This document shows positions 14,553-52,605 of a stretch of DNA of 52,605 nucleotides, piece after piece (the stretch's first letter is position 1; the number at the start of each line of letters is the position of its first letter). The DNA comes from an uncultured Nitrososphaerales archaeon (GTDB lineage: Archaea > Thermoproteota > Nitrososphaeria > Nitrososphaerales > Nitrososphaeraceae). The DNA lies in contig CAVPXM010000016.1 of assembly GCA_963709405.1 (NCBI GenBank), positions 1 through 52,605 of the forward strand, written 5' to 3'. The position numbers were made by a program, and so were the translations under genes. The notes under the pieces were generated by a model, which was given only the letters and a program-made list of their open reading frames with translations, had not been told where the DNA came from and ran no database searches.

Positions 14553-16891
14553 TTACAATACTCCGCCTCCACCTTCACCGCGTCTCATAGCCCCTACTGT
14601 AGGTGTTGGCCTACCAAACTGTTCAGCTATTCTCTTATACCAATTTAATTCTTGATTTGATAGCGGTCTAATCTTTTTCATCGCTTCTTCAAAGTGTCTC
14701 ATATATAGCTTCATCTCCTTTGAATGTTTTTTTGCTTCGATAGGATCTTGATACTTTGCTATGTGTTCTCGTAAAGCGAGCATTACGGCTGCCGCTGCAA
14801 ATGAAGCAATATCGGCTCCAGTATATCCTTCTGTAATGTCTGCTAAGTGCAGTATATTAACATCTTCTGCTAGCGGTGTTTTCTGGCTATGGATTTTAAT
14901 TATTTGAAATCTTGAGTCACGATCAGGAGGAGCAACATAAAGTACCCTGTCGAATCTTCCTGGTCTCAATAAAGCAGGATCTACTATGTCAGGTCTGTTT
15001 GATGCCGCTATAACAACTACACCTCTCAATTCTTCTAGACCATCAAGTTCTGTCAATAATTGGCTGATTACTCTTTCAGTGACATGAGAATCTCCAAAGT
15101 CTCCTCCCCTCACCGGTGCTATGGCATCAATTTCATCAAAGAATACAAGGCAAGGGGCAGCTTGTCTTGCCTTTCTGAACACTTCTCGAACGCCCTTCTC
15201 TGATTCTCCAACCCATTTTGAAAGTAGTTCGGGTCCCTTTATACTAATGAAGTTGGCCTGACTTTCGCTTGCTACGGCCTTTGCTAGCAATGTTTTACCT
15301 GTACCCGGCGGCCCATAAAGAAAGATGCCCTTTGGTGGAATCGCACTAGCTTCTGAAAACAATTCTCTATATTTTAATGGCCATTCTAGTGCCTCAATTA
15401 ATTCTTGTTTAATATCGTCAAGTCCTCCGACATCTCTCCAGCTTACGTTGGGAATTTCTACAAAAACCTCTCTCATTGCAGATGGTTCCATTTCATTTAT
15501 TACTTCCATAAAGTCTTCCATCGTAACGTTTATCTTGTTCAAAATCTGAACTGGAATGCTTTCTTCCGAAAGGTCTATCTCCGGTAGCACCCGTCTCAGT
15601 GCACGCATAGCTCGCCTCCTTCGTTAATGCTTGTAAATCGGCTCCAACAAATCCATGAGATATGTCTGCTAATTTTTCAATATTGACATCACGAGCTAAG
15701 GGCATATGGCGAGTATGAATGTGCAATATCTCCAATCTACCATTTCTATCTGGGACACCTAGCTCTATTTCTCTGTCAAACCTTCCGGGGCGCCTTAATG
15801 CTGGATCTATTGCATTCACTCTGTTTGTTGCACCGATGATCACCACCTTACCTAGTGATGATAGACCATCCATCAAAGACAAAAGTTGAGATACGACTCG
15901 TCTTTCAACCTCTCCTGTTACCTCTTCTCTCTTGGGGGCTATGGAATCTAGTTCATCAATAAATATTATCGAAGGAGCGTTTTGGTCTGCCCGTTGAAAT
16001 ATTTCTCTCAAATGTGCTTCGCTTTCACCGTAGAATTTGCTCATTATTTCTGGTCCGCTTATTGCGAAAAAGTTTGCATTAGTTTCGTTTGCAATAGCCT
16101 TGGCAAGTAATGTCTTACCAGTACCTGGAGCACCATGAAGTAATACACCTTTAGGAGCTTCAACTCCTAACCTTTTGAACAACTCAGGATGGCGTAAAGG
16201 GAGCTCAATAATCTCTCTTATTTTCGTAATCTCATCCTTAACTCCTCCAACATCCTCATAAGTGACAGACAGAAGTCCTTCCTGTTTGGATAAACCTTTC
16301 GCTATCTCCTCAGATACGACTATCCGTGTAGAGTTTGTAATTATGAGAGATCCTTTTGGTGGATTAGTTGAAACTACCATCAAATCAACTCTCTGTCCCA
16401 TTATGCCCAGCGGGACAATATCACCCTTCGTTACAATCTGGCCTTGCAGCACCGCGGCCAGATATTCTTCTGCTCCCACGATTCTCAGTGGCTCTGTAGG
16501 AGCAAGAGTAATACTCTTAGCATTTTTTGCTTCTGCCTTTCTAATTTCTACCTTGTCGTCAATACCTACATAAAGTCTATTTCTTATGTAGCCGTCTAAT
16601 CGTATCAATCCTTTGCCATAATCTTGTTCGTATGCAGGCCAGTTAAGAACGGAAGTTTTTGATTTTTCTGAACTAATCTCTATGACATCACCAGCCGAAA
16701 GACCTAATTCTTCTGAAATCTTTGGATCGATCCTTGCAACTCTTCTCCCAACATCCTTAGAATTAGCTTCAGCGACCTTTAAGCTAGTTTTCTCAGTTGT
16801 ACTATCATCACCGTTACTAGCGCTTCTCTTATCACCTGGAGTGTTAACGCCGCCGGTATTATTACTTCCCGTGCTTTGTTGCGCGATTCAT
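14553..16891 (-). CDS. cdc48: CDC48/VAT-family AAA+ ATPase, two apparent 1-bp insertions (~16887 and 15613)
   Basis: N-domain [19 protein letters not shown]; two AAA modules ([13 protein letters not shown]; [13 protein letters not shown]; RPGRFDR); removing the two extra bases restores a single ORF. Confidence 0.9.
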
Positions 16892-43872: not shown

Positions 43873-44053
43873 TCTAGGCAACAACAACAAAATCAAGCAA
43901 TAATCAAATAAATATAGATTAAGACAAGAATCAAAATGACTACAATTAGAAAATACCTGAGTGATTGTATACTAATGGCAATAATTCTCCTTTAACAATA
44001 ATTTGATGGAACCATATCAAGTTATTCTAATCTTATCTCTAATAATAAAATTA

Positions 44054-44982
44054 GGTAATACCTAAGAGTTTGGAACAGATTCTACCATCATCTCTGTCAG
44101 TATTCTGAAGATATTTTCGTTCCTATGATTGAACCTGAACTCTATTTCCTTTAAATAAAGTTCAAAGTATGATTTCGGTACACCTCGGTAGTGATATAGC
44201 CATGTCTTGGCATAGCTCCAGAATCCTTCGATACCATTGATATGAGTTGCATCACCTCTAACATATTCTTCCTTTCCATGAAGTATTATCTGATGTTTAC
44301 CTATCAAATTCAATGTAGCGTATGCAGTATGATCATCCGTGTAATACAAGGAACCTTTCTTTGTATGTTGTTTTATCAATGGGATCAAAGTATCATGTTT
44401 TCTGTCGGATACAGGGAATGTGATGACCTTGCCATTTCTCTGGTATATTCCAAATACTAGGTTTTTACCTTCAGATCCCCATCCACGTTTTCCTTTCCTA
44501 TGTCCACCAAATAATGCTTCGTCTATTTCTAATTCTCCGGACAACTTCTTTAACTCTTTTAGTTTCAGCAACGACTCATTGTAGATTGATTGTCTGAATA
44601 CTCTGAATGTCTTCTCTATCGTAGTCAAACTAAGTGGTACATAAAACCTGATCCTGTATGCAGGTACTCCTAGAGCGAATAGGTACGTAAGATGTACTAG
44701 TTTATCAAGCGAAAAGTTGAATTCTCCGATATACGTTCCTGTAAACTCTCCAAACTTGTATTTACAACGTCTGCATCCAAATCTCTTATCTTTAAGATGA
44801 TACAACAATCGGTATCCACATCTTGGACATTGTCTCCTTCCCTTCCATCTAGCATGACGAAAGTACGCAGCACTTTTTGTCACGCTTCCAGCGAGTTCTA
44901 TTGGGCTGTATTCACGCACGCAGCACGAATGTACCAGTCAAAATTATTCTTTATTTCTTGTTCCAAATGTTTGGGTATTACC
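44054..44982 (-). mobile_element. IS1595-family insertion sequence, intact
   Basis: 24-bp TIRs GGTAATACCTAAGAGTTTGGAACA / GGTAATACCCAAACATTTGGAACA and perfect 8-bp target duplication TAAAATTA. Confidence 0.95.
44062..44919 (-). CDS. IS1595 transposase
   Basis: Zn ribbon CPRC..CRRC; EIDEALFGG, YTDD, HINGIEGFWS, YLKEIEFRFN. Confidence 0.95.
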   Translation of the reverse strand: MREYSPIELAGSVTKSAAYFRHARWKGRRQCPRCGYRLLYHLKDKRFGCRRCKYKFGEFTGTYIGEFNFSLDKLVHLTYLFALGVPAYRIRFYVPLSLTTIEKTFRVFRQSIYNESLLKLKELKKLSGELEIDEALFGGHRKGKRGWGSEGKNLVFGIYQRNGKVITFPVSDRKHDTLIPLIKQHTKKGSLYYTDDHTAYATLNLIGKHQIILHGKEEYVRGDATHINGIEGFWSYAKTWLYHYRGVPKSYFELYLKEIEFRFNHRNENIFRILTEMMVESVPNS

Positions 44983-45162
44983 TAAAATTATATGCATCGC
45001 GCTAACAATATTGTATACACTACATGTATACATATACAAGCCCACATACTACGAACTACAAAGCAGAGTGTATGACAAAAAGTTACTTTGTATATACCCT
45101 GCTTCTCTATACGATGTATTAGTTTTTATGATATATTTGTATATTTGATTCTGAAGTAATGA

Positions 45163-46247
45163 ATGAAACAGCTTGCATTTGGAGTTCATTTACCAGTTAT
45201 CGAATTTAATAGCAGCAGTAATAGTAATAATAAAAATAATGAAAGAAACGAAAAGCTTCATACAAGAGAACAAATACTTTCAATTGCAAGAAAAGCAGAG
45301 TCTCTTGGCTATGATTCATTGAGTGTAAACGATCACATTGTCTCTAGAACTAGTTGGTTGGACGCGCTAAGTACGTTGTCAGTAGCTGCAGCAGTAACCA
45401 ATAGGATAAAACTTGGCACATCCATACTAAACATAGTTGTAAGAAGCCCTATTATATGTGCCAAGGCTTTATCAGTTATAGATATACTATCTTCTGGAAG
45501 GCTATTTCAGCAGGAGTTGGGCCTGGCTCACATAAGGGAGATTATGATGCATGTGGAATTCCTTTTGAGCATAGGTGGAGTAGATTTACTGAAGCATTAG
45601 AGATTTTGCATATACTTTGGAACAGTAGTAGTAGGAGAAAACAAAATGATGATGATGATGACGGTAATGACATAAAGGCTACTACTACACAATACGTAGA
45701 CTATAGCGGCAAATATTATCAATTAGAGAAAATATCTATTGCACCAATGCCATTTCAAAAGCCTCACCCTCCTATATTCGTAGGCACATGGGGATCATCA
45801 GAAGCAGGTCTAAAAAGAACTGCAAAATATGGTGATGGTTGGATGGCATCTGCATATAATATCACACCAGACAAGTTCAGAGAAAAATGGAATATCCTTT
45901 TGTCATACAGAAAAAGATTAGGTAAAGATAGCGAATCATTTGAAAATTGTCTTATGTCAATGTTTGGATACATCGATAGCGATAAAGATAAAGTTCACAG
46001 GATGGTAAAAGATAGGCTATCTCCAGCATTAGGCAGACCTGCAGAACAGTTAGAAAATCTACTTTTATTTGGGTCTGTTGAGGAGTGTATACAAAAGATA
46101 AATGTTCTTTATGAAGCTGGAGTAATGCGTTTCCATTTCTGGCCGATAAGCGATTTTGAAGAACAAATTGAGATCTTCAGAAAGGAAATAAGCTTCACAT
46201 TATTAGATTATAGAGATAGAGAGAGTAGTATGATGTTTTCCAAATAG
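45163..46247 (+). CDS. LLM-class flavin/F420-dependent oxidoreductase, frameshift near 45508
   Basis: AESLGYDSLSVNDHI, IKLGTSIL, SSGRL|AGVGPG, PFQKPHPPIFVG, YGDGW. Confidence 0.85.
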
Positions 46248-46322
46248 CTTTCTTACAAGGTTATTTTGGAGACATTACTGGTGTAGTTTTAGAATAGTGT
46301 ATTACATGCAGTAGTGTACTGC

Positions 46323-46338
46323 ATCCCACCGAACCCGC
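46323..46338 (+). other. tRNA 3'-end-like fragment, possible att site
   Basis: ATCCCACCGAACCCGC resembles the T-arm 3' strand plus acceptor stem, ~55 bp upstream of the integrase. Confidence 0.4.
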
Positions 46339-46392
46339 ACTGATAATAGTTCTCTAAAGGGACTCGTGAGAATAAAAAAGTGAAACCACGAG

Positions 46393-47670
46393 TTGATAGA
46401 TCAATATCATCATTATCAGGTTCCAAAGAACGAAGAGTTCCTGGATCCATACACTATATTCGTATACGCTATTAGGTCTCCTTATACCAAAGAATCGTAT
46501 TTTAGACGGTTGCGGAGATTCTTTGATACTATTAATTTTTGTGAAGGTGAACCTATGGATAAACGTTGTAATACATTTGCTTATAGGGGAAGGAATGATT
46601 CGAATTGGGCCTTTGGTAATATACTCAGATTTCTGCACTCCCAGAAGGAAAGAGTAGAAAGAAAGGAAATCACAGCAAGCACACTGCGTAACTATGTTAA
46701 AACAATCAAGATGTTCTGTGAGGTGATTGATGTAATCATCCAATGGAAGAAAATTACAAGAGGATTGCCAAGAGGGAAAAGATATGCAGACGATAGAGCG
46801 CCTACTATAGAAGAGATTCATAAAATTATTGAATATCCTGATAGAAGAATAAAACCAATCGCGTACACTATGGCCTCTTCTGGAATAAGGGTAGGAGCCT
46901 GGGACCATTTAAAGTGGAATCATATTTCTCCAATAACCAGAGATGGCAAATTACTTGCTGCGAAAATTAATGTGTATGCTGACGATGATGATGAATATAT
47001 CACATTCATAACGCCAGAGGCTTACTTATCTTTAGAGTCATGGATGAAGCATCGCAGTGCCTCGGGAGAACAAATCAGTAAAGACAGTTGGGTTATGAGA
47101 GATTTGTGGAACGCTGCAAAACTCCCAAAGAAAGAAGAAAAAGGAAAGATTAACGAGCCAATCAAATTACAATCTGTAGGAATTAGAAGGCTAGTGGAAC
47201 GGGCTCTATGGGCTCAAGGTATTAGAACTGAATTAGAGTCCGGCAGGAGGCGCCATGAATTTCAGACTGACCATGGTTTTAGAAAGTGGTATAAAACTCA
47301 ATGTGAAATTGCTGGAATGAAGCCGATAAATATAGAAAAATTGATGGGGCATTCAGTAGGCATCTCTGATTCTTACTATAGAGCCACAGAAAAAGAACTT
47401 TTAGATGACTATTTGAAGGCAGTTCCTGCACTCACAATAGGAAGTGAACACAGGCTTCAAAGCCAAATTAAGAAAATTGAAGAAGAGACAAGAAACAATG
47501 AGACTAATATTAATTCTCAGCTATACGAAAAAGAACAAAAAATTTCTACGCTGACTGAAGGGAACTCATCGAACGTTGATGCAATTGCGGCATTATCTGA
47601 TCAGGTGATGAAACTCACAAAAGAAATTGAGATGATGAAGAAGGGCAAGATCACTATTACAAGTCTATAG
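46393..47670 (+). CDS. Tyrosine recombinase/integrase
   Basis: SSGIRVG (R), HGFR (HxxR), LMGH, SYY (Tyr); C-terminal coiled coil. Confidence 0.92.
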   Translation: MIDQYHHYQVPKNEEFLDPYTIFVYAIRSPYTKESYFRRLRRFFDTINFCEGEPMDKRCNTFAYRGRNDSNWAFGNILRFLHSQKERVERKEITASTLRNYVKTIKMFCEVIDVIIQWKKITRGLPRGKRYADDRAPTIEEIHKIIEYPDRRIKPIAYTMASSGIRVGAWDHLKWNHISPITRDGKLLAAKINVYADDDDEYITFITPEAYLSLESWMKHRSASGEQISKDSWVMRDLWNAAKLPKKEEKGKINEPIKLQSVGIRRLVERALWAQGIRTELESGRRRHEFQTDHGFRKWYKTQCEIAGMKPINIEKLMGHSVGISDSYYRATEKELLDDYLKAVPALTIGSEHRLQSQIKKIEEETRNNETNINSQLYEKEQKISTLTEGNSSNVDAIAALSDQVMKLTKEIEMMKKGKITITSL

Positions 47671-47740
47671 TTTTAATGCTTACGTTTATGAAATGCATAG
47701 AAAATAACGACGGCTTAGTAGCAACCGTAGATCAATATGT

Positions 47741-48097
47741 CTATTTGTTCAACACCTTCCTCACCTCGGGCAAGGCCAGAGCAAATCCAACATGTATGCA
47801 ATCAGAACTATCATCGTGTAGACATTTTAGATACTTGTTTCTTACTTGAACTTCAATTAACCTTCCATCTTTTCTCACATCTTTAAGGATAACTGAATCA
47901 TCTCCAAAGCCTATAAGAGAAATGAACTGGGCTTTCCTGAGTATCTTACGACGTTCCAATTCTATTAACGCTGAATCTGAAACAAATGTAGCAAAGGATA
48001 GATTGGGTCTCTTGAGCTTCTCTCGCTTATAATTATCTTCTAGTTGCGTAAGGGCTCTCCCACTTATGGTTACAGTCTTTTGACCGGGCTGCGGCAA
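47741..48097 (-). CDS. Small putative regulator (RHH-like N-terminus, Cys/His C-terminal motif)
   Basis: KTVTISGRALTQL..SFATFV; CLHDDSSDCIH. Confidence 0.6.
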   Translation of the reverse strand: MPQPGQKTVTISGRALTQLEDNYKREKLKRPNLSFATFVSDSALIELERRKILRKAQFISLIGFGDDSVILKDVRKDGRLIEVQVRNKYLKCLHDDSSDCIHVGFALALPEVRKVLNK

Positions 48098-48146
48098 TAA
48101 AATGTCTAGTTGTTTATGACATTAATAAATATAACGTTAATATAGA

Positions 48147-48166
48147 GTGTCTAACCGGTTAGACAC
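48147..48166. promoter_or_regulatory. Perfect 20-bp palindrome, putative operator
   Basis: GTGTCTAACCGGTTAGACAC next to AT-rich TATA-like sequence between divergent genes. Confidence 0.65.
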
Positions 48167-48450
48167 CGTGTGACTCCAGAGCGTTGGCTACTATAATAGT
48201 AACAGAAATCGAAGGACCACCATCATGACAGACCTTTCTATCTCTAGAAAACATAGGAACGCTACTGTGCGTTGCGTTATCTCTAGAACTGGATACTCAA
48301 ACATATGGGCCTGGTCTCTAGTATTACAAAACAAAAACGGAGTAAAAAGAACAGAATAAAATGAAATCAAACAAAAAAATGGATTCGGTTCTGCCGCTGA
48401 TGGCGGGATAAAACTAGGGGGATCTGAAAGTCTACGTATCTGAAATCAAC

Positions 48451-51122
48451 ATGTCGGGAGACGGCAAAAAAACCTCGACCCCCACAGACCTTCCTAAAAA
48501 GGTGAGGGTTGACTACGGTCCTGTTGGAACGTCAACAAAACAAATGGCTGGATACTTTACGATTAACTGGCATACAAAACGAGACAACGGTGCTTGAGAA
48601 GGACTGGCCTCAGTTTGCGCTTAAAGAGAATTGCGATAACTCTTGGGATTGGCTAAATGACTTTTATGCTACAACGGTACCGGTGAATGTCTACAATTAC
48701 AGATGCTAGAAGGTATATAGGAATCCGTGTATGGATAGACAAAATTTCAGGAAACCCGAATGAAACAAGGATATTCCATTTATGCGTACGGAATTCAAAC
48801 ACCGACGAAATAAGGATACAAGAGTTTGAGCACTTAGACCAGATATTTAATTATGCACAATGGCAGAGTACCAAGCGATACCAACATAGAGCCACGACGG
48901 GAGCATTAGGCGATTATCTGAAAAGACACGGTGGTATGAGTCACGCAAGACTGGGCAGATAACATCAAATACGATACAGCGAATTATGACGACGACAATA
49001 GGCAATGGCCTATACCAATCTTCTTACGATTTAACGGTAAGGAATATCAGGTATATGTAAGCTACAACAAGTACGCTGGCATACCTTCCACAGTAATAGA
49101 GGGACCAACCAGATCAGATGCAACCAAATACACAGAAGTAGAATGCTCCTTACCAGTATCCAAAGTCAACTGTGACGGAGATCCTAATGCTAGTAACGCA
49201 TTATATCGAATGTCGTTAGTGGGTAAGTGACTCAGATATTACAAGACTGTATAAATTCGGAAAGGCAAATACCTTCTTTTCATTAGATTTACGTTACACT
49301 GAGAATAATATTCACATAACAGAGGCTGATAACTAAGTGGAAGATAGTATCTGGCGCTGGGTATATAGCGAATTCAGGAATTACATCAACAGTATTACAG
49401 ACAAATCAATTACTGTAGAGCGTGCATTAGATACATTTAGAGAGTCTCAAATGTCTACCAAACGGATCTAGAAACAGGACTATACAGGATATAGCATTTA
49501 AGAATACAGAGATTATCGGACTGTTTGAAGTATTAAGAAAAGGAATGCAACCAGAAAGCCTTAACCTGCCTTTCAAAATAAAAGACCGTGAAGAGGCAGC
49601 TCATAAACACTCTTGCAGAATATACAGGTGGCAATATCGATATAACAAAAGCTTATGCTAAAGTAGTTGTTGGACACTCACCACCATATGACGCAGGCAT
49701 AGAGGTGGATAATAATACTCGTTCATTTTACTACTGGTTAGAGGGCTGCTATTGCTGCGAAATCAGACGACCCGAATTATAACAACGCGGGTAAAATAGA
49801 ATTTATTGGATGTATAAACGGTACACCCTCATTAGATGGAGGAGAGTCGTATTTTAGAGACGGAAGATATTTCTGGCATAGTCAGGGCCAGAAATACGTT
49901 ACGACTAGCGCTATAGGTCTTAGAAGTTTGTTGCATGAATGTGGTTTTTCTACAGATAGTTATTTCTCTCAAAGAAGAATGTCCTCTATTATATTTGTAA
50001 ACCTGGTTACACCATGTGCAGAATGGGGGGGTTCAGCAGGTAAGACAAGTATCAATCTTGAGCTGTATCAAGACCTAATAGCAAAAACTGTTTCCACCCT
50101 AGCGTATAAGATACCGTCGCTAAAGGGTAAAGGTATTAAGACAACATGGGATACTGGTTTAGGTGGTATATACAAACCGTTTCTTGTAGGTTTTCTCAAG
50201 GAAAGAAAAGGCAGCGATTGAAACTAATCCGTTATTAGGTACGTACCTGATAGGCTTACACAATCCGGTGTCTGGTATCGTATTAGACCGAAAATGTTAG
50301 AGAAGGGATTTAGACCACGGAATAAACTATAAAAAAAACCATAAAAGAATTGTGGTCTGATGGAAGTGTTACAAGAGAATCGTTAGGAATTGTCGCAAAA
50401 GCAAGAGCTATGCTATACTTTAATGGTCAAGTATATCCTGTCACTTTTGATACTAAGGAAGAGTCTGTAAGAATAGGAACAACAGACATGGTCATAGTCG
50501 AGAAGGAAGGTGTTACCGACGTACTACTTGAGGCAGAAGCAAAAAAGTATAGGATTGCACTGGTGGCAACTGCCGGGAAGTTCGTGGATTATGTCAAAGA
50601 CTTGATGAAGCTGATTCACGAGGTTGCTATGAATGTCTGTGTTCTGACAGATTACGACATAGACGGTGTAAATATGTGGAGGCAAGCAGAACGGAAAGAT
50701 GGGTATTACAATTAAGAGAATAGGTATTACCCAAGATGTCGTAACATGGCTACAAGAAAATGGTCACGAGATAGACGTAACGGATGTAGAAGAGGAATAC
50801 CAGCCAGATCCCGCAGTATTCAGAAAGAGCGACGATCCATATTTGCTAGATACACGCATAGAATTAGATAGCATAATCCAGAAGGTTGGTGCCGATAATG
50901 TTTGGGAATATATTGTTTATCAGCTCTGAAACCGAATTTCCAGGGGCAAGAGATTACCGTAAGAAGGCACCGGAGCCAGAACCCACGAATTACTATCCTG
51001 ACGAACTAAATCAAATTATAAATTATCTTGAAGAATATACAAAATACACTTATAGCGAGAAATGGGAGGAGATAAAAGAACAGGAATTTAAGGAGGTCGA
51101 AGGACTTCTTCTACTTACATGA
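48451..51122 (+). pseudogene. Fused type IIB topoisomerase-like gene (GHKL ATPase + 5Y-CAP + TOPRIM), multiply frameshifted
   Basis: ALKENCDNSWD (N-box), VRNSN, STKR..GALGDYLK; LTQSGVWYR; IVEKEG, LTDYDIDG, RIG, IELDSI in collinear ORF fragments. Confidence 0.7.
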
Positions 51123-51553
51123 TAACTAGCATTCACTTCCAAAGTACCTAATATACAGAAAGTCTGTTCTACCTACTCGAGGACTCCTTATTTTCAGCGA
51201 GTTTACTCCACGCCATACATATATTGTTATTAGCAAAATTAGACTAAGTCTTAAAGTCATGAACTGTCTATACCTTGCTACTGTATATCTGAATCTTTTA
51301 TCTAGTTCAGGATCATAGATGATGTATTGATAATATGTTTTCAGTGTATTGCTATGTATCACTCAACTACAACAACGAAACCCCTATTATTCTCCAAAAC
51401 ACTAATCTATTCCAGATAAGAATTATGGAGAGATAAACATAATCTATCGTATTAGTATAACCATGCAAACAAAACAAAAGAACAAAGCAAACATTAATCT
51501 TAAATGACACCTTTTCTTTATGTAATAACAAAAGAGGCGATAAATATTCAGTT

Positions 51554-51805
51554 ATGCAATGTCCAAAATGTTCAACTCAAATGCAGCTAATGCAAAGGTA
51601 CGAGGCATTTATTGATTACTGTCCTTCTTGCAAGGGAGTGTGGTTAGACAGAGGGGAGATAGACAAGATAGCCCAAATCCAAAGTAGCTACGAAGACGAA
51701 CATTATAACAATTACCATTATAGAAATGGAGAGTATGTTGATGACTATTATTATGATAATAGAAGGAGAAGGAGAGGATTTTTTGGTGACTTGTTTAACT
51801 TTTAA
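51554..51805 (+). CDS. zf-TFIIB zinc-ribbon protein
   Basis: MQCPKC..IDYCPSCKGVWLDRGEIDKI..FFGDLF. Confidence 0.9.
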   Translation: MQCPKCSTQMQLMQRYEAFIDYCPSCKGVWLDRGEIDKIAQIQSSYEDEHYNNYHYRNGEYVDDYYYDNRRRRRGFFGDLFNF

Positions 51806-52276
51806 GACATCAGCGTGAATACGTAAAACGGTAATATGAGAAGATTTTTTCATGAAAAATAGGACCTGATCGGTTTCAAAGGCGATAACTTACGATAAAA
51901 TCTAAGTAAGTTCTTGATTATGTTGTTTTTATAGCCGTTCTTTTTTTGGATCTTTTGAGTTCTGGTTCATTAATCAGAAATACAAAGATCTGACCATTAC
52001 ACTCTGTTACGGATTTTAGAGAATATCCACCATTAGCTAAAAGAGCCTCCATTTCAACGAGCATTTTCTTAGGGCTTGCACGATCATGTTTTGAGTTCTA
52101 AATTTTGTAAATATGGTAATATGTATAGGCTTGCAAAGTATACAAGGGGAATGCTTATTATAGTCCAATATTTTATCCTCCTAGATTTTGAAGCATAATG
52201 ATATGTCAGAAATATAGTGGCTATCCACAAACTTACAAATGATATTATACCTACTGAATGATATGCAAAAACTAGA

Positions 52277-52603
52277 CTAGGCGATGCTGTTGGAGTATGA
52301 GGTAAATGGATTAAAATCGGATGTTATATGGTCAGGTTTTCCCTTAAGGAAATTGTCAACATATATGAATCTGATAATATTACTCAATGAAAGCATGGCA
52401 ATTGCTGCCGCATAAGCCAGTACAACTCTACTTGGAAAGTTCCTGTATGTGCGTACTAGTCTAGAGGAAAGAATTGCTAGTAATACAATGATAGTGATTA
52501 GATTTATTCCCACTACAGTTTCCAAGAGATCGACGTTATATTGTGATGTGAAAATAGCCTCGAACAAAATAATGACAAGGATACCAGAAGCAGAATACTG
52601 CAA
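52277..52603 (-). CDS. Membrane protein, 5'-partial
   Basis: Three hydrophobic segments; the frame runs off the window end. Confidence 0.55.
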   Translation of the reverse strand: MQYSASGILVIILFEAIFTSQYNVDLLETVVGINLITIIVLLAILSSRLVRTYRNFPSRVVLAYAAAIAMLSLSNIIRFIYVDNFLKGKPDHITSDFNPFTSYSNSIA

Positions 52604-52605
52604 GT

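Follow-up and report, generated by a model that had tools for sequence, protein, structure and literature searches.

We analysed a stretch of DNA of 52,605 nucleotides (nt), hereafter the window, which is contig CAVPXM010000016.1 of assembly GCA_963709405.1 from an uncultured archaeon of the Nitrososphaeraceae. Near the end of the window, beside an intact integrase gene, lie the pieces of what we read, with a probability of roughly 0.7 and from sequence comparison, as an accessory type IIB topoisomerase gene set resembling topoisomerase (Topo) VIII and encoded as two cistrons.

Between positions 48451 and 51122 the forward strand contains no long open reading frame (ORF) but at least 12 stop-free pieces distributed over three frames. 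When the two intact ORFs of a related genome, G031 (297 and 642 amino acids (aa)), were used as tblastn query, they matched the window collinearly on 48517-51104 at 44-87% identity. The frame order along the first ORF is 1>2>3>1 and along the second 2>3>1>2>1>2>3, with about ten frame changes, and in-frame stops are present at 49228, 49334 and 50219-50227. The TAA at 49334-49336, directly followed by GTG, marks the border between an N gene and a C gene and is found at the same position in three intact relatives. The N gene (48451..49336, forward strand, three frames in the assembly) would encode a GHKL (Bergerat-fold) subunit of ~295 aa and is collinear with residues 31-265 of the G031 N protein. 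The C gene (49337..51122, forward strand, also in three frames) would encode a protein of ~640 aa with H2TH/transducer, 5Y-CAP and Toprim parts and is collinear with residues 16-632 of the G031 C protein. A previous reading of this DNA from the sequence only had joined the pieces into one gene of ~2.7 kb. The collinearity is upheld, with the fragments aligning across frameshifts to one protein family over 2.6 kb and not to unrelated proteins, but the single gene is not, because the TAA at 49334-49336 parts N from C.

The GHKL, switch-lysine, catalytic tyrosine and Toprim motifs occur where the sequence-only reading had placed them, in the expected order between 48620 and 50872 on the forward strand. 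The N gene contains the N-box LKENCDNSWD (48620-48649), VRNSN at the G1 position (48786-48800) and the G2 box GALGDY (48900-48917). In the C gene these are followed by the switch-Lys motif GSAGKT (50030-50047), the catalytic Tyr motif QSGVWYRIRP (50261-50290), the Toprim glutamate in VEKEG (50497-50511), the Toprim DxDxxG motif DYDIDG (50650-50667) and the T2BI-like box RIELDS (50855-50872). The window copy retains every residue that is invariant across the topoisomerase family to which it belongs.

Relationship to Topo VIII

Searched singly against Pfam, the window pieces gave two weak matches, both from the Toprim piece (DUF2399, E 1e-3; TOP6A-Spo11_Toprim, E 2.4e-3). An 858-aa fused member of the family retrieved 147 proteins, and among the best 120 of these 147 no name was more informative than 'hypothetical' or 'DUF2399 domain-containing'. 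A family profile built from 36 full-length proteins (A1) had matches in the PDB that were limited to Topo VI-B chains (E ~9e-6), covering GHKL/H2TH and the transducer stretch with the switch lysine. Single members matched the NCBIfam models for Top6B at the N-terminus and Top6A at the C-terminus, at 14-28 bits against cut-offs of 274 and 424.

Across 72,556 plasmids, the sole tblastn match was a gene of a Halalkalicoccus jeotgali plasmid that is a published Topo VIII. Using hhalign, A1 aligned with this protein nearly end to end (99.7%, E 2.9e-26, 747 columns) and with the biochemically studied Topo VIII of Paenibacillus polymyxa pPPM1a over 599 columns (99.0%, E 2.4e-18), compared with 38% for the genome's own Top6B and 2.8% for its own Top6A. 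The top look-alikes found with a protein language model (scores 0.97-0.98) were clusters of 745-875 aa with TOP6A Toprim and HATPase_c. The C-terminal part gave a weak match to PHROG 6247 'DNA topoisomerase' (E 5.5e-4) and no match in a phage collection, and a PADLOC scan returned nothing beyond weak JetD Toprim matches. Canonical Topo VI is intact in the same genome as a B-A tandem on contig C55 (C55:312096-315056), its top6B scoring 400 bits and thus above the cut-off.

Because of the profile, plasmid and hhalign results and the intact Topo VI genes on C55, the locus appears to be an accessory Topo VIII-like set. The earlier assignment to a type IIB topoisomerase like Topo VIII, with collinear B-like and A-like parts, is supported by the PDB, NCBIfam and hhalign matches. 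Profile comparison puts Topo VIII far above the genome's own Topo VI, and the B and A genes that are separate and housekeeping are those on C55. That the pieces are instead remnants of housekeeping Topo VI or chance look-alike ORFs, as the weak Topo VI-A and Topo VI-B matches might suggest, is refuted by the collinear tblastn match across 2.6 kb, by the hhalign alignment with the H. jeotgali protein, to whose kind the profile is far nearer than to the genome's own Topo VI, and by the intact top6B-top6A tandem on C55.

The family has the same order of parts as is described for Topo VIII (Gadelle 2014, PMC4117785; Takahashi 2020, PMC7671362), namely GHKL, H2TH/transducer, 5Y-CAP, Toprim and C-terminal extension. 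Shared features are the N-box, the G2 box (mostly GxxGxA), the switch Lys, the Toprim E and DxDxxG, and the Topo VIII-specific Arg three residues after the catalytic Tyr, often with Pro next. Like Topo VIII, the family occurs on mobile elements in fused and two-subunit forms. The T2BI box is near but not identical, reading RVELNAM in Topo VIII (NRVEINAF or RVELNAM in the four sequences aligned) and R[IV]E[IL][DN][SA] in the family. The family differs from Topo VIII in having N-S-N for the G1 motif DxGxG and Ser for the Arg four residues before the Tyr. Its members are also longer, at ~860-1000 aa compared with 751-906 in four reference Topo VIII, and its hosts are Nitrososphaeraceae, whereas the four archaeal sequences among the 82 reported in the Takahashi survey (PMC7671362) are all from Euryarchaeota.

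With Topo VI the family shares a predicted Bergerat fold, a transducer with switch Lys, the catalytic Tyr and Toprim. However, the whole transducer of Topo VI lies in the B subunit whereas that of the window clade lies in the C protein, and the family scores under the curated Top6A and Top6B cut-offs and has weak profile similarity to the genome's own Top6A and Top6B. Mini-A (Takahashi 2020) likewise combines 5Y-CAP and Toprim on mobile elements, and the family includes A-only relatives, but Mini-A is ~300 aa long, carries the box xWELDAL and lacks a B part, whereas the window clade has an N partner, a transducer and RIELDS.

Two cistrons, fused forms and A-only forms

The sequence-only reading had described a fused B+A gene. 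In the window clade, however, the enzyme is encoded as two adjacent cistrons, and only more distant members are fused. A stop codon parts N from C in four genomes (TAG in G031, TGA in G027, TAA in the copy on contig C47 of the window's own genome and TAA in the window), after an N protein of ~280-306 aa. The C protein then begins at most a few bases away from this stop, with a change of frame in two of the four. A match to at least 90% of the length of the C type was seen in no fewer than 55 clusters of 600-700 aa, and the distant members each consist of one ORF, which spans 925-1017 codons from stop to stop. A quick maximum-likelihood tree was made from the 5Y-CAP-Toprim region (68 rows, 273 columns; four Topo VIII rows as the only outgroup). 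In it, the Toprim piece of the window falls in a clade of 13 rows with 99% Shimodaira-Hasegawa-like approximate likelihood ratio (SH-aLRT) support, which comprises ten split C proteins, the window piece, a short copy in genome G004 and one fused protein.

The split lies just before the stretch that aligns with the H2TH start in the Top6B alignment, given what we take to be the limits of the H2TH domain. In Topo VIII, by contrast, splits are described at two places, both of them in the transducer (PMC7671362).

A-only proteins of 360-460 aa, consisting of the 5Y-CAP-Toprim-C-terminal half, form several well-supported clades of their own. One of them, G004:C16 (L020:8233-9396), is directly beside an orthologue of the window integrase. 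These proteins may be derivatives or remnants.

Conserved and altered catalytic residues

We counted residues over 262 family proteins aligned with four Topo VIII taken from plasmids, using the diagnostic Topo VIII features given by Takahashi 2020 (PMC7671362). The residues of the nucleotide site are largely kept: in the N-box, E in 162/171, N in 174/174 and D in 173/175; in the G2 box, Gly in 178/178 and 180/180, with A (156/180) or G (22/180) as the last residue. The switch Lys, which aligns with YKSAGKESI of Top6B and DGK of Topo VIII, is present in 206/206. At the cleavage site, the catalytic Tyr is found in 224 of 225 proteins, with Arg at +3 in 209/225 and Pro at +4 in 121/225 (the window reads YRIRP), and the Toprim residues are E in 224/224, D in 218/218, D in 216/217 and G in 217/217. 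The T2BI-like box has R in 194/203, [IV], E in 203/203, [IL], then D or N (159 and 41) and S, N or A (133, 33 and 26).

Two positions are altered. The Asp of G1 is Asn in 165 of 176 proteins and Asp in 6, and the glycines are lost, such that DxGxG becomes N-S-N; the VRNSN that had been pointed out in place of DNG is therefore a property of the family as a whole. The position four residues before the catalytic Tyr is Ser in 183/224 and Arg in 6/224, and the R/HxxY/F/M-Y context of the Topo VIII catalytic Tyr is not matched in the family. The N-, G1- and G2-boxes are reported as conserved in 93% of Topo VIII (PMC7671362).

Because the G1 Asp is replaced by Asn and the Arg by Ser, nucleotide use and DNA handling may differ from those of described Topo VIII. 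The activities reported for Topo VIII themselves vary, comprising ATP-dependent relaxation and decatenation, ATP-independent relaxation, or linearisation (PMC4117785), and the Asn and Ser changes thus leave room for another nucleotide requirement or a cleavage-only role.

Origin of the frame breaks

We compared window positions 48300-51300 with contigs of four public runs (X1, X2, X5 and X12), of which X12 is an RNA library and X1, X2 and X5, with contigs ~99% identical to the window, come from three soil studies other than the source. Aligned with 48300-50329, the X1 contig (3045 nt) has 13 one-base gaps and 6 substitutions. No fewer than 12 of these gaps are window bases missing from X1, and most of these are also missing in X2 and X5; the twelve single extra bases listed from the X1 alignment are at 48385, 48387, 48431, 48568, 48704, 48950, 49246, 49445, 49591, 49743, 50210 and 50242 (forward strand). 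The stop at 49228 reads CT in X1, X2 and X12, the site of this altered stop being AGCT in the other contigs. In silico removal of seven extra bases yields open frames of 269 and 292 aa.

Roughly half of the extra bases differ from the bases next to them, and 7 of the 12 listed ones are at AGCT, GATC or GTAC sites (once the base is removed), compared with 6.9% of positions (p 4e-6). GATC (methylated to N6-methyladenine, m6A) and AGCT and GTAC (to N4-methylcytosine, m4C) are described as motifs on which persistent orphan methyltransferases act in Nitrososphaerales (PMC10609329). The window's own genome has nine PF01555 matches and one match to a Dam-type methyltransferase. Among repeats in this genome, 572 of 2669 distinct one-base insertion or deletion (indel) contexts (21.4%) are at the three motifs, against a background of 7.1%; eight control palindromes in the same repeats show no excess (17.8% versus 19.3%). 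The number of one-base gaps per mismatch rises from 0.058 in pairs that are 93-95% alike to 0.30 in pairs at least 99% alike. The genome is very rich in repeats: 1374 pairs measure at least 400 nt, with an identity of 93% or above. Stop-free frames of 120 aa or longer make up 57% of its sequence, compared with 74-76% on the two largest contigs.

Because the insertions are absent from near-identical contigs and clustered at methylation motifs, most of the frame breaks are probably assembly errors and not the marks of a decayed gene. On the basis of contigs from other studies and of motif statistics, we consider it quite likely that the extra bases are consensus errors made by a sequencing method sensitive to base modification at methylated AGCT, GTAC and GATC sites in repeated DNA near a contig end, and that the real genes are whole.

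Several observations weigh against this reading of the locus and its frame breaks. Sites at which frames could be joined show no excess at the motifs genome-wide (301 of 38,654, 0.78%, versus 1072 of 124,171 control sites, 0.86%), so that the errors, if errors they are, would be confined to repeated DNA; a genome-wide depletion of AGCT was looked for and not seen. The integrase next to the genes is unbroken, although only one AGCT occurs within it. Of the 12 listed extra bases, five fall outside the motifs, and a more divergent contig, from the RNA library X12, shares the one at 49246. At 50329..50340 (forward strand) the window has 10 nt where the X1, X2 and X5 contigs have 77, a 67-nt shortfall that is not an error of the methylation type, and residues 350-381 (~30) of the G031 C protein have no counterpart in the window. 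Stop- or frame-broken copies in other genomes indicate that real decay of the family occurs. For the locus as a whole, we infer the enzymatic activity of all family members from homology, and the Asn-for-Asp and Ser-for-Arg calls follow MAFFT, HMMER and hhalign alignments. Borders of the presumed element were looked for and not found: the window lacks a tRNA gene, and no direct repeat on the flanks was convincing. The contig stops at 52605, 1.5 kb beyond the C gene.

The frame breaks could alternatively be real: the window copy would be a dead gene, the integrated element around it would be decaying, and several further copies in this repeat-rich genome of 4.8 Mb would have decayed too. Of at least seven copies or fragments in this genome only the C47 copy is whole; G004 retains just a 388-aa C-terminal ORF beside a frameshifted integrase; and copies with many stops are found elsewhere among the genomes. 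The nonsense change and 67-nt shortfall in the window, and the lack of a genome-wide excess of motif-linked frame breaks, would also fit decay, as would the fact that the adjoining integrase and insertion sequence are intact. However, 13 one-base gaps against six substitutions are far from what natural decay would leave, and no fewer than 12 of these gaps are bases added in the window. Roughly half of the added bases do not repeat a neighbour, the breaks are concentrated at host methylation motifs and all family-invariant residues are retained. We therefore regard decay as unlikely, if still a serious competitor.

A further alternative takes the A or T added in AG^CT, together with the changes at GTAC and GATC, for real scars, left where restriction cuts at unmethylated sites of mobile DNA were rejoined with one added base. 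The AG^CT insertions in the window are exclusively A or T, as are 72 of 84 such events among the genome repeats, and enrichment appears in repeated DNA, most of it mobile, but is lacking genome-wide. However, a strand-symmetric read error at a palindrome would be just as likely to give this A/T symmetry. Moreover, PMC10609329 describes the methyltransferases of these motifs as orphans that lack a nuclease, it is improbable that several double-strand cuts within 2 kb were all rejoined in the right order, and other samples have clean sequence at ~99% identity. We consider scars very unlikely.

Related frame patterns were noted at other places. Loci L052, L053, L059 and L065 show runs of frame changes, with that of L052 (3>1>2>3>1>2>1) resembling the window; AG[N]CT was found at the frame changes of L052 and L053 at one site each, with no clear pattern. 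Contigs from X12 cover parts of the genes at 94-99% identity, which is not proof of transcription. Elsewhere in the window, on the reverse strand at 14553-16608, two ORFs of 351 and 371 aa overlap, and dropping the middle base of AG[AT]CT at 15514 would join frames of at least 80 codons on each side; this site is possibly another consensus error of the same kind. One-base indels at AGCT, GTAC and GATC in repeated DNA of the assembly can pass for pseudogenes in sequence scans.

Integrase and element context

Upstream of the topoisomerase genes, on the forward strand at 46393..47670, is an intact ORF of 425 aa with a C-terminal helical tail that encodes a tyrosine integrase; the sequence-only reading had likewise noted an intact integrase. 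It matches phrog_1 integrase (E 1.9e-8) and, under the cut-off, the NCBIfam XerA-type recombinase (E 5e-10), with sub-threshold Pfam matches to Phage_integrase and SAM-like domains; the catalytic residues were read by eye. In G004, which is a sister species, an orthologous integrase with 90% nt identity is beside only the last 388 codons of the C gene, and relatives of the integrase also adjoin topoisomerase genes on C47 and in G027. We searched for homologues beside integrases in 33 loci with flanks, a set in which one contig is present twice, and found an integrase within a few kb in 15 of them. The window-type integrase is present in 6 loci and a second family, I2, in 10. The I2 family is classed as integrase by its phrog_1 match alone (E 8e-12) and has no BLASTP similarity to the window integrase. 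An uncharacterised ORF of 378 aa recurs in 7 of the 33 loci, and helix-turn-helix proteins recur too.

Between the integrase and the N gene, an ORF of 118 aa is oriented divergently (47741..48097, reverse strand). It had no match in Pfam, PADLOC, NCBIfam or PHROG. The proteins that resemble it by language model are hypothetical ones of Nitrososphaerota with 120-132 aa. One cluster of these has RHH_1 in 11% of its members, a weak lead to a possible small DNA-binding protein and to the divergent regulator that the sequence-only reading had named. A fragment of this ORF, with 79-84% aa identity, is at the same place in the C47 copy.

Searches with the flanks in the genus gave scattered repeats and no empty site, and an Rfam scan of 44000-52605 gave no match. 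A 33-nt imperfect palindrome is present at 46298-46330, just upstream of the integrase, and recurs at 11 places in the genome (at most 6 mismatches) and in other genomes of the genus. As it is not tied to integrases, we rejected it as an element border.

The surrounding DNA contains further repeated and mobile sequences. At 44045-44991 there is a complete IS1595-type insertion sequence with 33-nt terminal inverted repeats (82% complementary) and a transposase of 285 aa (44062-44919, reverse strand; DDE_Tnp_IS1595, E 2.6e-32; zinc ribbon, E 1.6e-8). At 45163-46247 is an ORF pair in two frames (145 and 263 aa), with a 97% identical copy at C38:48112-49341 that is also split (124 and 253 aa) and with 85-88% copies in three genomes of the genus. 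Just downstream of the topoisomerase genes, 51554-51805 encodes an intact zinc-ribbon protein of 83 aa (Zn_ribbon_TFIIB, E 5.8e-16). Two segments at 51138-51311 and 51944-52092 (~175 and ~150 nt) occur in many copies, 67-94% identical, in each of the seven genomes of the genus; in several copies of the former, the reverse strand has a conserved frame. In four loci, at L043:5055-7061 and in L053, L065 and L034, the topoisomerase gene adjoins an ORF of 669 aa with DUF72 (E 5.5e-50) and a Y-family DNA polymerase domain (IMS, E 8e-44).

Possible function

The family has homology to Topo VIII, conserved catalytic residues, a two-cistron layout in the window clade and linkage to integrases. From these we infer how the N-C enzyme may be assembled, what it may do and what its role may be. 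The locus would be the cargo end of an integrase-borne element in an ammonia-oxidising soil archaeon of the Nitrososphaeraceae. The N protein would act as a GHKL nucleotide-binding clamp, and the C protein would supply the H2TH/transducer with the switch lysine, the 5Y-CAP with the catalytic tyrosine and the Toprim metal site. An (N-C)2 assembly might then cut both DNA strands by means of the tyrosine and Toprim-bound Mg2+, pass or relax the DNA and reseal it, with the N clamp and switch Lys coupling cleavage to a nucleotide. Such an enzyme could aid the replication, unlinking or resolution of a small circular element after excision, a role that is proposed, not demonstrated, for Topo VIII too. 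The sequence-only reading had likewise suggested a part in element replication, or in defence.

It is also conceivable that the proteins do not form a strand-passage topoisomerase but a DNA-cutting or clamping module, for example for defence or exclusion, as with JetD of Wadjet, or for break formation, as with Spo11/TopoVIB-like proteins. The best Pfam and PADLOC matches of the Toprim part are to DUF2399/JetD (E 2.5e-4 to 2e-3), and two residues that are key in Topo VI, the G1 Asp and the Arg preceding the Tyr, have been replaced. One described Topo VIII is reported merely to linearise plasmids (PMC4117785), and the A-only relatives of 360-460 aa fall in separate clades. However, the N-box Glu and Asn, the G2 box and the switch Lys are kept, and these are relevant solely to transducer-coupled nucleotide hydrolysis. 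The likeness to JetD, which has a Topo VI-A-type Toprim, is limited to a Toprim match of ~70 residues (E 2e-3 to 1.3e-2), compared with the end-to-end match to Topo VIII, and the JetD N-terminal domains (DUF3322/DUF2220) are unmatched. No JetABC-like or other defence partners are present among the conserved neighbour families. We give a cutting or clamping module a small share of the probability.

Distribution and implications

A profile search of 1.84 billion representative sequences returned 2496 clusters at E<=1e-3, 547 of them at E<=1e-30. In species-representative genomes there are 39 loci, all in archaeal metagenome-assembled genomes, whose titles name Nitrososphaerales, Nitrososphaeraceae, Nitrososphaera or Nitrosopolaris in 31 cases, Nitrosopumilales in 1 and 'Thermoproteota archaeon' in 7. 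Within the window's GTDB family, 47 of 200 other genomes have a match (E<=1e-10), in 10 of 18 genera and with two large genera at 0/34 and 0/37; this tally takes in G361 and G483, which are flagged as unpublished. In a phylum-wide sample outside the GTDB family, 1 of 300 genomes has a match. The topoisomerase family is thus patchy and multi-copy within the Nitrososphaeraceae and almost confined to them, in keeping with the suggestion of a distinct thaumarchaeal family.

A literature search found no paper linking Topo VIII to Nitrososphaerota, the sole co-occurrence being 'Thaumarchaeota' in the title of a reference. Topo VIII is rare and barely studied, with 82 sequences, 4 of them archaeal, in the 2020 survey as reported (PMC7671362), and no archaeal Topo VIII enzyme has been characterised according to PMC8185306. 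Hundreds of clusters in soil ammonia oxidisers would greatly enlarge the archaeal side of Topo VIII.

More tentatively, and with considerable doubt on our part, these proteins may constitute a large, undescribed mobile-element lineage of the Nitrososphaeraceae in which a near-invariant Asn stands in for the adenine-binding Asp and Ser for the DNA-contacting Arg, while hydrolysis residues, cleavage site and switch Lys remain unchanged. Should the Asn be functional, the lineage would represent a type IIB enzyme using another nucleotide (for example guanine or hypoxanthine) or having a new mode of DNA gating. If the lineage is real, its fused and A-only forms, and the two-subunit form with its new split point, could serve to dissect the coupling between nucleotide binding and DNA cleavage. 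Two natural changes at catalytic positions and three architectures would then offer testable material on the mechanism of type IIB enzymes and on the role of a topoisomerase for small integrated elements.

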